UHGV virus genome: UHGV-1351569
DNA length: 64,000 nt
From: a virus
Direction: 5' to 3' (one strand)
Made by a program: the position numbers and the translations under genes. The first letter of the stretch is position 1. Each line of letters opens with the position of its first letter. The notes under the pieces were generated by a model. The model was not told the origin of the DNA. It saw only the letters and a program-made list of their open reading frames with translations, and ran no database searches. Of this stretch, positions 43,542 through 48,567 are shown piece after piece.

Positions 43542-44168
43542 ATGTATGAATACAAATTTGATGTGAGAGTTGGTTCTAAAATAATCAACTGTCGCGCATT
43601 TACTCTTAAAGAATATCTAGAACTTATTACTGCTAAAAAGAACGGTTCAGTAGAAGAGATCGTTAAAAAGCTAATCAAAGAATGCACAAATGCAAAAGAT
43701 TTAAACCGCCAAGAATCAGAACTACTGTTGATTCATTTATGGGCGCATTCTCTTGGAGAAGTTAATCACGAAAACTCCTGGAAGTGCACCTGTGGAACTG
43801 AAATACCAACCCATATAAATCTATTACATACACAAATAGATGCACCAGAAGACCTCTGGTATACACTGGGTGACATTAAAATTAAGTTCCATTACCCTAA
43901 AATTTTTGATGATAAAAATATAGCCCACATGATAGTATCATGTATAGAAACGATTCATGCTAACGGTGAAAGCATTCCAATTGAAGACTTAAATGAAAAA
44001 GAGTTGGAAGATTTATATTCTATCATCACAGAGTCAGATATTGTAGCTATAAAAGATATGCTTTTAAAGCCTACTGTTTATTTGGCTGTTCCAATTAAGT
44101 GTCCAGAGTGTGGAAAATCTCACGCTCATGTAATAAGAGGACTCAAAGAATTCTTTGAGCTATTGTAA
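43542..44168 (+). CDS. 26: baseplate hub subunit gp26
   Basis: 208 aa (T4 gp26 length). Confidence 0.9.
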
Positions 44169-44566
44169 TGGCAAATATTAATAAGCTTTATTCTGACATT
44201 GACCCAGAAATGAAAATGGATTGGGACAAAGACGTTTCCAGATCCCTTGGATTAAGGTCAATTAAAAATAGCCTTTTAGGAATTATTACAACCAGGAAAG
44301 GGTCAAGGCCATTTGACCCGGAATTTGGATGCGATTTATCTGATCAGCTTTTTGAGAATATGACTCCTCTTACTGCTGATACTGTTGAGCGTAACATTGA
44401 AAGCGCAGTAAGAAACTACGAGCCGCGTATTGATAAATTAGCAGTTAATGTAATACCAGTTTATGATGATTACACTCTGATAGTAGAAATACGCTTTTCG
44501 GTCATCGATAACCCTGATGATATTGAACAGATAAAACTGCAACTGGCTTCTAGTAACAGAGTATAA
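44168..44566 (+). CDS. 25: baseplate wedge subunit gp25
   Basis: 132 aa [28 protein letters not shown]... Confidence 0.93.
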   Translation: MANINKLYSDIDPEMKMDWDKDVSRSLGLRSIKNSLLGIITTRKGSRPFDPEFGCDLSDQLFENMTPLTADTVERNIESAVRNYEPRIDKLAVNVIPVYDDYTLIVEIRFSVIDNPDDIEQIKLQLASSNRV

Positions 44567-44592
44567 TGCTTCACGTATAAACGTGGTATAAT
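44567..44592 (+). promoter_or_regulatory. MotA-dependent middle promoter
   Basis: MotA box TGCTTCA (44567-73), TATAAT (44587-92); spacer contains the small palindrome CACGTataaACGTG. Confidence 0.6.
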
Positions 44593-44632
44593 GAATCTAA
44601 GTCCATCCAATAACAATTGAATAGAGAATAAT

Positions 44633-45232
44633 ATGAAATTAGTACATTATTGTTACTTAACTAAAATTATTCATAATGATAAAATTAGACTATACTTTGG
44701 CAAACACTCAAGTAGATGTGGATTAGATAATAATTATATAGGTTCTGGCAAGTTTATTAAAAGCGCAAGAAAAAATCCAGAAGTAAAATTTGAGAAAACA
44801 GTACTTTGTGTCTTTGACACAAAAGAGCTCAATGCCGAGTTTGAAAATTTATTAGTATCTGAAGCTAAAGAAAAATTTGAAAACTGTGTTAATATAGCTG
44901 AAGGTGGAATTGGTGGTAAAACTTGGGGAAATAATCCACATCCGATGCAAGGAAGACGCATGCCAGCTTCGGAAGATAGAAAAGCTAAAATATCTGCTAC
45001 GATGAAAGATAAATTTTCAAATCAAATTCATTGGGCTAAAGACGTCGATAGACCAAGCAGACGTAGTTCTCGCATTCCATGGGAACACTATGATGCTCTT
45101 TATAATCTTTGGGTAAATAATAATTTTCCTAAACGCGGGAGTTTTAATAAACTTGCAAAAACGCATGGATATCCTGCTGTAGATTATGCTGGTATGGTTA
45201 TTAATTTTATGAGGAAACGTGATGAGACTTGA
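44633..45232 (+). CDS. Seg-like protein, degenerate GIY-YIG homing-endonuclease fold (putative)
   Basis: 199 aa; N-terminal HYCYLTKIIHNDKIRLYFGKH...NNYIGSGKF resembles GIY...YIG spacing; basic C-terminal region. Confidence 0.55.
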   Translation: MKLVHYCYLTKIIHNDKIRLYFGKHSSRCGLDNNYIGSGKFIKSARKNPEVKFEKTVLCVFDTKELNAEFENLLVSEAKEKFENCVNIAEGGIGGKTWGNNPHPMQGRRMPASEDRKAKISATMKDKFSNQIHWAKDVDRPSRRSSRIPWEHYDALYNLWVNNNFPKRGSFNKLAKTHGYPAVDYAGMVINFMRKRDET

Positions 45233-45635
45233 AGAGTTACAGGAAGAATTGAAGAAAGATGTGTTTATAGATTCGACTAAATTACAGTATGAAGCAGCTA
45301 ATAATGTGATGTTATATAGTAAATGGCTTAATAAGCATTCAAGTATTAAAAAGGAAATGCTTAGAATTGACGCACAGAAAAAAGTTGCTCTTAAAGCTAA
45401 ATTAGACTACTACTCGGGACGAGGAGATGGTGATGAATTTAGTATGGATCGTTATGAGAAATCAGAAATGAAGACAGTTCTATCGGCTGATAAGGATGTT
45501 TTAAAAGTTGATACTTCATTACAATATTGGGGAATTTTATTGGATTTCTGTAGCGGAGCTCTTGATGCTATTAAATCACGCGGATTTGCTATTAAGCATA
45601 TTCAAGACATGCGAGCATTTGAGGCTGGAAAATAA
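45222..45635 (+). CDS. uvsY: recombination mediator UvsY
   Basis: ATG 45222 gives 137 aa MRLEELQEELKKDVFIDSTKLQYEAANNVMLYSKWL... Confidence 0.95.
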   Translation: MRLEELQEELKKDVFIDSTKLQYEAANNVMLYSKWLNKHSSIKKEMLRIDAQKKVALKAKLDYYSGRGDGDEFSMDRYEKSEMKTVLSADKDVLKVDTSLQYWGILLDFCSGALDAIKSRGFAIKHIQDMRAFEAGK

Positions 45636-45859
45636 TGAAATATAGCATTGATGATGCTTTTAATTATGAAGAAGAATTTGAAACGGAAATTCAATTCTTA
45701 ATGAAAAAGTATAATCTCAAGCGTCAGGATATTCGTATCCTGGCCGACCACCCATGCGGTGAAGATGTACTTTATGTTAAAGGAAAATTTGCCGGATATC
45801 TTGATGAATATTTTTATTCCAAAGATATGGGCATTGATATGCATATGAGAGTTATATAA
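45635..45859 (+). CDS. hypothetical protein
   Basis: 74 aa ORF; start overlaps uvsY stop. Confidence 0.6.
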   Translation: MKYSIDDAFNYEEEFETEIQFLMKKYNLKRQDIRILADHPCGEDVLYVKGKFAGYLDEYFYSKDMGIDMHMRVI

Positions 45860-45887
45860 ATAGATATATAATTCAGAGGAGACAATC

Positions 45888-46037
45888 ATGTCAGATAAGA
45901 TTTGTGTTGTCTGTAAAACTCCAATCGATTCTGCATTGGTTGTTGAAACAGACAAAGGTCCTGTACATCCTGGGCCTTGTTATAATTACATTAAAGAACT
46001 ACCAGTTTCAGAAAGTTCGGAAGAACAATTAAATGAA
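45888..46037 (+). CDS. possible small Cys-containing protein (49 aa)
   Basis: ATG 45888 with SD AGAGGA 7 nt upstream; MSDKICVVCKTPIDSALVVETDKGPVHPGPCYNY...; hand-translated. Confidence 0.35.
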
Positions 46038-46079
46038 ACACAACTTTTGCTATAGTGTGACCTTTAGTCTATAGTTTTG

Positions 46080-46113
46080 GCCCTTCCTTTTTGGTTGGGC
46101 CTTTTTTAATTTA
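46080..46113 (+). terminator. hairpin terminator
   Basis: GGCCC-(13 nt loop)-GGGCC followed by TTTTTTAATTT. Confidence 0.6.
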
Positions 46114-46341
46114 AAAGCTTTCTTCTACTTCATCGTCTGAATCTTCTAATTCAGCTCTTTTTCCTGCCAAAGCATCTCTCACAGAGATGTCATCAGTATC
46201 TTTTAATTCAGTTTCTTTAACTCTTTTCTTATAATAAGCTTCAAGTTCTTCTAGACCTTCTAATGTTTGGCAAGAGGCAATTTTACCCATAAATTCATCA
46301 ATAGAAGCTTCATAAAGAAATTGTTTAAATTCTAGTAACAT
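46111..46341 (-). CDS. uvsW.1: UvsW.1-like small acidic protein
   Basis: ATG at 46341 gives 76 aa MLLEFKQFLYEASIDEFMGKIAS...; SD GGAG upstream; track ORF starts at an upstream TTG. Confidence 0.65.
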   Translation of the reverse strand: MLLEFKQFLYEASIDEFMGKIASCQTLEGLEELEAYYKKRVKETELKDTDDISVRDALAGKRAELEDSDDEVEESF

Positions 46342-46366
46342 CTTTTTCTCCAAAGGGCCGAAGCCC

Positions 46367-47059
46367 TTATAAATTAACTGTTTTTCTAAGTATTCTTAGT
46401 TTGTACATTGATAATCCAGTAGCTTTAGAAGCATCTTTCATACATTTATACTTAACACCATTTACTTCTATAGGTTTAGCAGCTGGGTTATTAGCTCCTG
46501 AATTATCTGGCATGTTATCTTTAATTTTCTGAATAGATTTAGCGGAATGTTTCCTTCCATACATGCCGTTATTTTTACCCGATTGATTGATTGAATGTAA
46601 TCTTTTAGCTTCTTCAGTCCATTTCGTTGGGTTCATTCTTTTAGTTTTACTAATTTTATTTCCCCATGTAATTGGACGACTTTTCATGAGTTTTGACATA
46701 TATTGTTTATGTTCTTCCGTGTGGTGTTTTCCGTAAAATGGATTACCTTCGCCGGATTGAAGTTCTGCCATTTTACGACGTTCCCATGCGTAAGATTTAT
46801 TGACGTGTCTTTCATGAGTATTTGAATTCATCCCCATACATATAACAGCTTTAATTATACCGTAATGGTTTGGATGAATTTTAGCTAAAAGTTTATGGGC
46901 TATAAAATGTTCTTCAGCCGTTAGTTCTACTAAATTACACTTATCATTTGTACCACCCATACATCTAGGAATTATATGATGTGTTTCAGTGTATCCATTA
47001 AGGCGAGCCCGATTCTGGGCTCTATTAATTAAATTATCATATATTAATTTATAATTCAA
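46367..47059 (-). CDS. HNH homing endonuclease (Mob-like) between uvsW and uvsW.1
   Basis: 230 aa MNYKLIYDNLINRAQNRARLNGYTETHHIIPRCMGGTNDKCNLVELTAEEHFIAH; NUMOD-like motifs; apparent TTG start overlapping uvsW TGA. Confidence 0.75.
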   Translation of the reverse strand: MNYKLIYDNLINRAQNRARLNGYTETHHIIPRCMGGTNDKCNLVELTAEEHFIAHKLLAKIHPNHYGIIKAVICMGMNSNTHERHVNKSYAWERRKMAELQSGEGNPFYGKHHTEEHKQYMSKLMKSRPITWGNKISKTKRMNPTKWTEEAKRLHSINQSGKNNGMYGRKHSAKSIQKIKDNMPDNSGANNPAAKPIEVNGVKYKCMKDASKATGLSMYKLRILRKTVNL

Positions 47060-48567
47060 AGTTTAACCTCTTTCATCACATAATTAAACTTTTCATCAGC
47101 ATAACGCTGAATACGATCAAGTCCATGTTTTAAAAGATAGTTTAAATGCGAGTATTTTTTAGAAGATGTTTTTGATTTAGAAACTACGCCCGCGTCATCT
47201 ATGAGGTCCCAGACCGTTGCGATTGTTTTAGAACCATGCTTACGTAATACGCGACCTATTGTTTGCAATACAATAATTTTAGATTTAACACCGTGTGCTA
47301 AAACGACGTGATGCAGATTTTTAACTGAAATACCAGTAGAAAATACACCATAACTAGCTACTATAATTATTCCTTTACCGTTTTCAGCTAGGGTTTTCAT
47401 TACGTTGCGTGTTTCGGTATCAACTTCCCCTGATACGTAATAAACTTTATCGTATTCATTTTTAATTAAATCGAAAATAGCTTTACCGTGCGATACGTGT
47501 TTAAACATGACAAAAGCGTTTTCATCTTTTTGTGCAAGCTTAATAGCTAATTTAGCGATCCATTTATTTCTTTTACTGAGTCCAGTAATAATTTTTATTT
47601 CTTCTTGGTAAGTTTTTCCCTTTAATTTAGTAGTGAACTCATCAGGATAACGAAGAAAAATACTATTAATTTTTAACTCAGTTACTTGTCCATCTTCCAT
47701 TAATTTAGAAGTCGTTACTGGCTTAAATATTTCACCAAACATTCCAACATACTGCATGATATTAGCTTTGCCATCACGTAATGAACCCGATAGACCAAAT
47801 TTGAACATGCAGTTATTTAAACCTGATATGATAGATGAAATACTTTTTCCTGTAGCAAGATGGCATTCATCATTCATCATCATTCCAAACTGTGAGAACC
47901 ATTCTTTTGGTTGTTTAACTACAGTTTGCCATGTACCAACAACGACCGGTGCATCATTTTTATATTTATCATCTTTTGATGCTCCGCCACCAATTTTCTT
48001 TATCATTGCATGACTGAATAAACGATAGTCAACAAAGTCATCAGCCATCTGAGTTGTCAAAGCAGTTGTTGGAACAATGATAAGAATTTTACCTTCATAA
48101 TTTTCCAAATAATATCGCGCAAGCAAAGCCTGAATTAAAGATTTACCGGCGGATGTTGGAAGATTAAGAATTCTACGACGATTAACTAATCCTTCGAACA
48201 CTGCATCTTTTTGATACCAGTGCGGTTCAATTCTTTTATTTCCTGAATAGATTTCTAATTTAGAAAGCCATTCATCAAAATCTTTTCTTGATAATTCTTC
48301 TTTTTCGTTAATTTGTGGGTCAATCCAGGCTTTATAGCCAAAGTTATCACAGAACTTTTTAATTTGCCCGACTAAGCCGAATGGAAGAAGACGATTATAA
48401 TCTAAAAGACGGATTCGTCCATCCCAGTTGCCATATCTGTACTTCGGATTAAAACGATACCCATCAGCTTCAAAGCTAAAGAAATCACGGAGTTCATGAA
48501 ATGTACTTTCTTCACAATCAATTCTCACGTGACTAAAATCATAAAAATGTACTTTAATGTCAGTCAT
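47056..48567 (-). CDS. uvsW: UvsW helicase
   Basis: 503 aa (T4 UvsW length); Walker A region LPTSAGKS, DECH box. Confidence 0.95.
   Translation of the reverse strand: MTDIKVHFYDFSHVRIDCEESTFHELRDFFSFEADGYRFNPKYRYGNWDGRIRLLDYNRLLPFGLVGQIKKFCDNFGYKAWIDPQINEKEELSRKDFDEWLSKLEIYSGNKRIEPHWYQKDAVFEGLVNRRRILNLPTSAGKSLIQALLARYYLENYEGKILIIVPTTALTTQMADDFVDYRLFSHAMIKKIGGGASKDDKYKNDAPVVVGTWQTVVKQPKEWFSQFGMMMNDECHLATGKSISSIISGLNNCMFKFGLSGSLRDGKANIMQYVGMFGEIFKPVTTSKLMEDGQVTELKINSIFLRYPDEFTTKLKGKTYQEEIKIITGLSKRNKWIAKLAIKLAQKDENAFVMFKHVSHGKAIFDLIKNEYDKVYYVSGEVDTETRNVMKTLAENGKGIIIVASYGVFSTGISVKNLHHVVLAHGVKSKIIVLQTIGRVLRKHGSKTIATVWDLIDDAGVVSKSKTSSKKYSHLNYLLKHGLDRIQRYADEKFNYVMKEVKL

Follow-up and report, generated by a model that had tools for sequence, protein, structure and literature searches.

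A Seg-type endonuclease gene, probably a homing element, set into the start of uvsY in a T4-like phage genome

The virus genome UHGV-1351569 was analysed as a stretch of 64,000 nucleotides (nt), called the window below, with positions counted from its first letter. It is a T4-like (Tequatrovirus) genome and contains, at the start of the recombination gene uvsY, an additional open reading frame (ORF) of 199 amino acids (aa). Most probably, this ORF is the gene of a functional, free-standing T-even Seg-type homing endonuclease, which targets the 5′ end of uvsY and was inserted by capture of the uvsY start codon; a rough probability of 0.75 can be given to this reading, which is drawn from sequence comparison and a structure model. 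Alignment with insert-free phages shows the gene to be inserted inside uvsY past codon 3, apparently lacking its own promoter, ribosome site and start codon. As the same alignments show, uvsY has been rebuilt as a second cistron, with a predicted replacement ribosome site and re-coded first seven codons that both come from the 3′ end of the insert. No description of this endonuclease or of the start-capture arrangement was found in the literature searched.

Insertion of the gene in uvsY

The ORF, its junctions and the restarted uvsY have the following positions.

44633..45232, + strand: putative Seg-like free-standing homing endonuclease ORF, 199 aa (PHROG 314, hhalign match to SegE, AF2 pLDDT 88, dN/dS ~0.16; all discussed below)
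44633..44642, + strand: captured uvsY start ATGAAATTAG (Met-Lys-Leu and the first base of codon 4), the left junction; identical to the first 10 nt of BYEP01 uvsY
45211..45215, + strand: new Shine-Dalgarno sequence GAGGA for uvsY, inside the last codons of the endonuclease gene (TTT ATG AGG AAA), 6 nt upstream of the ATG at 45222
45222..45242, + strand: re-coded uvsY 5′ end ATGAGACTTGAAGAGTTACAG (MRLEELQ), the right junction and co-transferred flank; differs from T4/BYEP01 at 6–7 of 21 nt
45222..45635, + strand: uvsY, 137 aa, intact, 3′ of the endonuclease gene (Pfam UvsY, E 4.6e-52, full length)

The insert-free references were BYEP01 and T4 for the window, COW86c for Klebsiella phage vB_KpnM_VPA32 (flanks 99.3% identical) and IME08 for Escherichia phage KIT01 and the metagenome contig L019. 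Homology of the window to BYEP01 and T4 ends after 44642 and returns at 45243 (GAAGAATTGAAG...). The uvsY gene of the window starts with ATG AGA CTT GAA GAG TTA CAG; the corresponding codons are ATG AAA TTA GAA GAT CTT CAA in BYEP01 and ATG AGA TTA GAA GAT CTT CAA in T4. The re-coded 21 nt are identical in all 12 insert-bearing loci compared. When 79 nt from 45222 were searched, the re-coded start was found only in Salmonella phage GRNsp7 among 700 matching phage records, the next best records having 5–6 mismatches, and a scan of IMG/VR gave no match to the re-coded junction. The re-coded stretch is thus seen exclusively in company with the insert.

The N-terminal Met-Lys-Leu was considered as the element's own and ruled out: the upstream 66 nt and ATGAAATTAG match insert-free phages, and from genus to genus the captured residues (MKL, M, MSK) also follow those of the local uvsY.

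The protein begins with MKLVHYCYLTKIIHNDKIRLYFGKHSSRCGLDNNYIGSGKF, in agreement with the peptide quoted in a first-pass annotation of this DNA. That annotation described a 199-aa ORF between gene 25 and uvsY that overlaps the uvsY start; the ORF is present, at 44633..45232, and the overlap amounts to 11 nt (uvsY ATG at 45222). The first coordinate given for it, 44567, is that of a MotA box and not of the ORF, which starts at 44633. Alignment with BYEP01 also revises the position 'between 25 and uvsY': the ORF lies inside uvsY, past codon 3, and begins at the start codon of uvsY itself.

In insert-free Tequatrovirus uvsY (BYEP01, L002), codons 4–7 contain a perfect palindrome of 10 base pairs (bp), GAAGATCTTC, which includes GATC and is broken in the insert-bearing allele (GAAGAGTTAC, window 45231..45240). 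This palindrome is a tempting candidate for the endonuclease target, but insert-free Karamvirus has the non-palindromic GAAGATTTAC and the candidate was not retained as such; GAAGATCTTC could be part of the target.

Distribution and the same layout in other genera

A megablast search with 44100–45700 against 50,697 phage records gave 503 matching records, mostly of T-even-type phages of Escherichia and Shigella and for the greater part Tequatrovirus. The ORF is present in one of the 503, GRNsp7 (98.3% identity), where it is annotated as 'hypothetical protein' (USW07275); the others are 97–98% identical on both sides and simply lack the ~590 bp. The exact protein occurs in 51 blocks of public assemblies. 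All 10 places listed are at the gene 25/uvsY locus, in backgrounds that differ in the presence of segE beside uvsW and of an HNH gene between uvsW and uvsW.1.

Homologues are found in GRNsp7 (100% identity), VPA32 (orf204) and Enterobacter phage vB_Ent31 (both 64%) and KIT01 (KIT01_193, 55%). In GenBank, they are labelled 'intron-associated endonuclease' in VPA32, 'endonuclease' in vB_Ent31 and 'hypothetical protein' in GRNsp7 and KIT01_193; no paper describing any of the four was found in the literature searched. VPA32 (Karamvirus), KIT01 (Dhakavirus) and the metagenome contigs L019 and L021 have the homologue between gene 25 and uvsY; in vB_Ent31 the locus was seen beside uvsY, and GRNsp7, VPA32 and KIT01 share the junction layout too. 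The insert is present in 2 of ~30 Karamvirus records.

In VPA32, KIT01 and L019, the endonuclease gene starts at the local uvsY ATG. The captured uvsY codons are MKL in the window, M in VPA32, ATGAG (M(R)) in KIT01 and MSK in L019, for which the reference IME08 uvsY begins MSKEIEY. AGGAAA, the uvsY ribosome site, stands at the same position in the last codons of the endonuclease gene in five of five lineages. The full TTTATGAGGAAA (F-M-R-K) is found in the window, KIT01 and L019; the first two codons are TTT AAG in VPA32 and TTT GTG in L021. Downstream, uvsY restarts with synonymous or conservative recoding in each lineage, and codon 5 is changed from GAT to GAG in both the Tequatrovirus and the Karamvirus pairs.

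The homologue P0005 of contig L021 (~1480–1500) is called from an internal ATG (MTEII...); its frame runs up to a GTG and reads (M)EKIHYCYMTEII, which restores the GIY strand. The database protein P0005 is, probably, truncated at its N-terminus.

Protein family, fold and catalytic domain

Three parts can be distinguished in the protein.

44633..44917, + strand: predicted GIY-YIG catalytic domain, residues 1–95; key residues Y8, Y21, G23, K24, H25, Y35, G37, S38, G39, E71, N87, G91 and G92
44921..45013, + strand: basic linker, residues 97–127, with one NUMOD3-like motif (PMQGRRMPASEDRKAKIS); the parts of relatives P0011 and P0021 aligned with it are Pfam NUMOD3 matches
45074..45226, + strand: C-terminal three-helix domain, residues 148–198, probably a helix-turn-helix DNA-binding domain (predicted fold)

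By profile comparison and predicted structure, the N-terminal domain is a GIY-YIG nuclease domain, and by sequence the protein is of the Seg type, closest to SegE. A family profile of 75 sequences aligns with T4 SegE over 106 columns (hhalign 99.85%, E 1.2e-30), and a direct BLASTP comparison gives 27% identity (E 2e-12). The same profile matches I-TevI (hhalign 89.6%, E 1.9e-6), with Y8, Y21, G23, E71 and N87 opposite Y6, Y17, G19, E75 and N90. In PHROGs, the protein matches phrog_314, 'homing endonuclease' (E 8e-19); in BFVD it has 99 matches at E ≤ 0.001, the best of which are T-even Seg-type 'site-specific intron-like DNA endonucleases'. A full HMMER scan with a profile built from four relatives of 52–64% identity (all that a word-indexed search found) gave 4,985 proteins at E ≤ 0.001. 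Among the 75 aligned relatives, 24 match Pfam GIY-YIG (PF01541), 24 SegE_GIY-YIG (PF19835) and 38 NUMOD3. PDB sequence matches to SLBP and ribosomal L7 are weak, reflect low-complexity basic sequence and were ignored.

The two motifs of the domain are HYCY (Y8) and YFG (Y21 and G23). G23, Y35, G37, G39, E71, N87 and G91 are invariant in all 75 relatives, and Y8 (73/75), Y21 (74/75), S38 and G92 are nearly so; every one of them is present in the window protein. The Seg-like GIY-YIG identity proposed in the first-pass annotation is supported by these comparisons, and no homology to an unrelated uvsY-adjacent protein emerged. The description of the N-terminus as 'degenerate' has to be dropped, since the motif is the normal one of the SegE-like clade, and of the proposed GIY-10/11aa-YIG spacing only the assignment stands: the two tyrosines and the glycine map to those of I-TevI, but the gap between Tyr8 and Tyr21 is 12 residues, compared with 10 in I-TevI and SegE. 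A two-residue hairpin insertion accounts for the difference.

The AlphaFold2 (AF2) model, made from the 75 sequences, has a pLDDT of 88, with low values at residues 96–110; it superseded a model from five sequences (pLDDT 70) that gave noise in a Foldseek search against the PDB. The N-terminal domain is predicted as a three-stranded sheet with flanking helices, as in I-TevI, UvrC and Eco29kI, with a loop at residues 28–39 where helix α1 would fall. Residues 150–198 form a confidently predicted three-helix bundle, weakly like DNA-binding domains of the Myb/homeodomain type. The C-terminal half is basic, as had been remarked earlier: residues 96–199 have an isoelectric point of 10.2, with 20 K+R and 10 D+E.

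A chance ORF or annotation artefact without a protein product could be argued for only from the lack of matches in curated family libraries, and can be practically discounted. Homologues of 52–64% identity and the presence of the exact protein in 51 blocks at this locus show that the ORF has not arisen by chance; the 4,985 relatives, the confident fold and the intact state of the ORF in at least five lineages already refute such an explanation.

Selection, spread and proposed function

The ORF is under purifying selection: the Nei–Gojobori ratio of non-synonymous to synonymous substitution rates (dN/dS) is ~0.16 against the VPA32 (64%) and KIT01 (55%) homologues, with dS near saturation. Pairs of the 12 insert-bearing loci differ on average by 0.43% in the gene, where the 5 variable sites are all synonymous, and not at all in the re-coded 21 nt. 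The corresponding values are 3.4% for gene 25, 2.6% for gene 26 and 1.3% for the remainder of uvsY; this contrast is overstated, because the loci were picked by exact protein identity and non-synonymous variation was thereby excluded. Ten distinct left-flank haplotypes occur among the 12 loci. Such a pattern of diversity is as expected of a recently spreading element.

The steps of homing can be pictured by analogy with the characterised Seg enzymes (PMC2988022); catalytic activity, target site, homing and promoter use are inferred. The endonuclease would be produced at middle times, from the first cistron of the uvsY message. In a mixed infection, it would cut the 5′ region of uvsY in a related phage without the insert, and the break would be repaired from the insert-bearing genome, so that the gene and the re-coded flank would be copied in. 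The insert-bearing allele would be immune, because the insertion divides its target and the substitutions change it.

Besides the way in which the loci were picked, four points weigh against a functional homing endonuclease. The first is the rarity of the insert, owing to which the drive is perhaps weak or the arrival recent. Next, the single protein has no match in Pfam (E ≤ 1), NCBIfam or PDB sequence searches, and small profiles gave no useful match in these libraries either. T4 SegE itself scores 21.6 bits on PF01541, under the cut-off of 22.6 bits, so the missing Pfam match says little. Then, the catalytic arginine of I-TevI (R27) has no aligned counterpart, as hhalign leaves I-TevI residues 21–31 unaligned; of the catalytic residues that the first-pass annotation proposed to check, the glutamate is placed (E71, aligned with E75) and an equivalent of Arg27 is not. 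Instead of the Arg27 helix, the clade, SegE included, has a D-x-Y-x-G-S-G loop and K24 (54/75) and H25 (67/75; Arg in 7) right after the YIG glycine. SegE is tabulated as an active endonuclease (PMC2988022); since it shares the pattern, the lack of an aligned equivalent of Arg27 is taken as a trait of the clade and not as decay. Lastly, the gene is perhaps kept since its deletion would remove the ribosome site and start codon of uvsY.

The last point leads to a different explanation, that of a domesticated or inactive remnant, retained because the ORF links uvsY to its promoter and supplies its ribosome site and start. The only recognisable ribosome site and start of uvsY do lie inside or right after the ORF, no internal uvsY promoter was found in it, and an endonuclease gene that contains host signals is more readily retained (PMC2988022); as said above, the canonical arginine could not be placed and the Pfam match is lacking. 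If the ORF served only as a spacer, its protein sequence would not be conserved; dN/dS, however, is ~0.16 along the full length across three genera, and every family-invariant residue is kept, the equivalents of the catalytic Glu and Asn among them. Recent spread also fits better with the presence/absence polymorphism, the low diversity in the gene and the variety of flank haplotypes. Of the two options in the first-pass annotation, an active homing endonuclease or a domesticated remnant, the second is disfavoured by purifying selection together with the presence/absence polymorphism, and a remnant appears improbable.

Promoter, leader and oriF

The promoter region of uvsY now lies upstream of the endonuclease gene and directly follows gene 25.

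44168..44566, + strand: gene 25 (baseplate wedge), the left neighbour (Pfam GPW_gp25, E 1.4e-18); its stop codon abuts the MotA box
44567..44573, + strand: MotA box TGCTTCA (AATGCTTCA from 44565), part of the uvsY middle promoter of the resident genome; identical in insert-free BYEP01 and T4
44572..44585, no strand assigned: palindrome CACGT-ATAA-ACGTG in the spacer of the promoter, native to PuvsY; arms kept in T4, BYEP01 and GRNsp7
44587..44592, + strand: −10 hexamer TATAAT after TGG (extended −10), assigned from sequence and identity to T4
44600..44632, + strand: resident uvsY 5′ leader and ribosome-binding region, now apparently used by the endonuclease gene; one mismatch to BYEP01

A 13-nt spacer with CACGTATAAACGTG separates TGCTTCA (44567–44573) from TATAAT (44587–44592), and the transcription start, judged from spacing alone, would be at about 44600. 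The pattern TGCTTYA-N11-13-TANNNT has 7 matches in the window against 2.35 expected, a number that none of 100 shuffles reached. Alignment to T4 shows conservation of the MotA box, the −10 hexamer and the leader; the promoter with its CACGT-N4-ACGTG palindrome is nearly base-for-base that of T4 uvsY, and both are on this ground attributed to the resident genome and not to the insert. The MotA box and −10 with a palindrome in the spacer, directly upstream of the ORF, are thus present as the first-pass annotation described them, but they constitute the native PuvsY/oriF promoter and not one of the element's own.

The centre of this palindrome varies (TTAA in T4, ATAA in the window and BYEP01, GTAA in GRNsp7), with the arms kept, and its right arm provides the TG of the extended −10. 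The T4 leader and unwinding region of oriF contain a 10-bp tandem duplication (CCAATAACAA twice; T4 locus L006, − strand) that is lacking in the window (44600..44632) and in BYEP01.

The MotA box at 44565–44573 is the sole one in 44400–45700, and a sequence scan of the insert gave no other MotA box, no late-promoter TATAAATA and no terminator-like site on the + strand. An internal middle or late promoter for uvsY was sought inside the insert and none was found. On these grounds, the endonuclease gene and uvsY are predicted to be co-transcribed, as one middle-mode message from the MotA-type promoter; the co-transcription suggested in the first-pass annotation holds as far as these signals show.

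Translational control by an RNA hairpin is known for I-TevI, segB and mobE (PMC2988022). A hairpin that would sequester the ribosome site was sought here as well and rejected: neither the leaders (window, BYEP01, VPA32) nor the region of the uvsY restart folds better than its shuffled controls (z −0.6 to +1.1), and the short inverted repeats in the leader are for this reason not taken as regulatory.

In the T4 RefSeq record, oriF (ori uvsY) is placed at nt 7 of the coding sequence of uvsY, and the uvsY transcript is given as its primer. This origin consists of a middle promoter and a downstream unwinding element in which R-loops form, and heterologous unwinding sequences can substitute for that element (PMC3016281). 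The insert starts at about +44 from the presumed transcription start, 3 nt past the annotated oriF point. The first 100 transcribed bases contain 79% A+T with the insert versus 72% without it; because the A+T content stays high, oriF function may well survive the insertion.

This position bears on another possible role, that of a competition ('marker exclusion') nuclease or of a DNA-binding regulator at uvsY/oriF, which would mainly cut or bind this region in rival phages or in its own genome and so bias replication or repress PuvsY, with the spread of the gene being secondary. The insertion is 3 nt from the origin point and behind the promoter of an origin composed of promoter and unwinding element (PMC3016281); I-TevI also represses its own gene, through an operator similar to its homing site (PMC2988022), and the left half of the presumed target is still found directly upstream of the gene. 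The promoter contains no repeat of the presumed target sequence, and no structured RNA or operator-like feature stands out (fold z −0.6 to +1.1). With SegF and SegG, a single cleavage leads both to marker exclusion and to homing, which makes this role more a nuance of homing than an alternative to it. As the main explanation it is, if anything, still more improbable than a remnant, and both are ranked below a functional homing endonuclease, for which the evidence is stronger.

A wider proposal is unlikely, if a little less so than the two just discussed. The endonuclease clade would use a dedicated 'restart cassette', a third way, beside introns and inteins, for a homing endonuclease gene to reside inside a conserved coding sequence. 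Since the promoter with the first ~45 transcribed bases is also the R-loop origin oriF, the endonuclease messenger RNA (mRNA) would double as the origin primer and cleavage would hit the origin of rival phages. If true, it would couple the spread of the element to the control of replication initiation.

Neighbouring genes and other endonucleases

The gene order around the locus is 27, 51, 26, 25, the 199-aa ORF, uvsY, uvsY.-1, uvsY.-2, uvsW.1, an HNH ORF and uvsW. In a comparison of 43542..46055, the window agrees at the variable sites listed in 44400–45500 with two metagenome contigs of 168,202 bp (L009 and L015; JGI 3300045988, ENA ERZ27229741) and differs there from GRNsp7.

The HNH/NUMOD3 ORF (46367..47059, − strand) is a second endonuclease ORF, of 230 aa, located between uvsW (47056..48567), the stop codon of which it overlaps, and uvsW.1 (46111..46353). 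It matches Pfam NUMOD3 (7e-14) and HNH (0.011) and TIGR01453 (5e-7). It is missing from T4, GRNsp7 and most contigs with the Seg-like gene, is present in L015 and L016 and is shorter, with 197 aa, in L009; it resembles an independent second mobile endonuclease, ~1.1 kb from the Seg-like gene.

In some Dhakavirus genomes (IME08, locus L005 ~1501–2157, unannotated; IME281; IME341), the usual place of uvsY.-1, at the opposite end of uvsY, is taken by another Seg-like ORF, with 31% identity to the window protein. Across different phages, endonuclease insertion sites thus occur on either side of uvsY. segE beside uvsW is present in some contigs with the Seg-like gene and absent in others (L007 and L010 versus L008 and L011–L014), which indicates free reassortment of mobile endonuclease genes around uvsW–uvsY.

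Significance

The gene encodes a Seg-type endonuclease not characterised before, and its locus is outside the classic T4 list. SegA is located at uvsX and SegE at uvsW (PMC2988022); with the present gene, a homing endonuclease would be associated with each of the three 'uvs' recombination genes. The base-level junctions in three genera illustrate how a cassette without a promoter and a start codon can sit inside a gene without an intron, and they point to a short candidate target, uvsY codons 1–7. Since the site lies inside the best-studied R-loop origin of T4, the insertion is also a natural experiment on the replaceability of the unwinding element. Current understanding is not overturned, and homologues are already annotated as endonucleases in GenBank.

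Comparison with known systems

The closest known system is T4 SegE, whose gene lies between inh and uvsW and which targets uvsW. The homologous catalytic domains share the pattern H-x-x-Y ... Y-I/F-G-K-H-S ... D/N-x-Y-x-G-S-G ... E ... N-I/M-x-x-G-G, and both genes are free-standing, encode ~200 aa, have the orientation of their neighbours and stand beside a recombination-repair gene. They differ in locus (inh/uvsW versus 25/uvsY), and the C-terminal halves have no convincing alignment. The SegE promoter is in the non-coding region upstream of its ORF (PMC2988022), whereas the gene in the window would use the promoter, ribosome site and start codon of its target gene.

In contrast to I-TevI of the td intron, the gene described here is not intron-encoded, and its protein has no aligned counterpart of helix α1/Arg27 and no match to the I-TevI DNA-binding domain. 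The interruption of the td gene is removed by splicing of the RNA; the interruption of uvsY appears to be bridged by translational re-initiation. The mobE gene of Aeh1 is reportedly, as here, inserted inside a coding sequence that stays functional. The homologues in VPA32, vB_Ent31 and KIT01 belong to other genera (Karamvirus and Dhakavirus) and differ in the number of captured codons.

Many seg and mob genes are promoter-less cassettes that use upstream T4 promoters; the arrangement in the window is similar in that an upstream resident promoter would be used and an existing polycistronic message joined (PMC2988022). It differs from these cassettes in that the first one to three codons of the host gene have been split off and fused in frame to the endonuclease, and the start of the host gene has been re-coded by the cassette.

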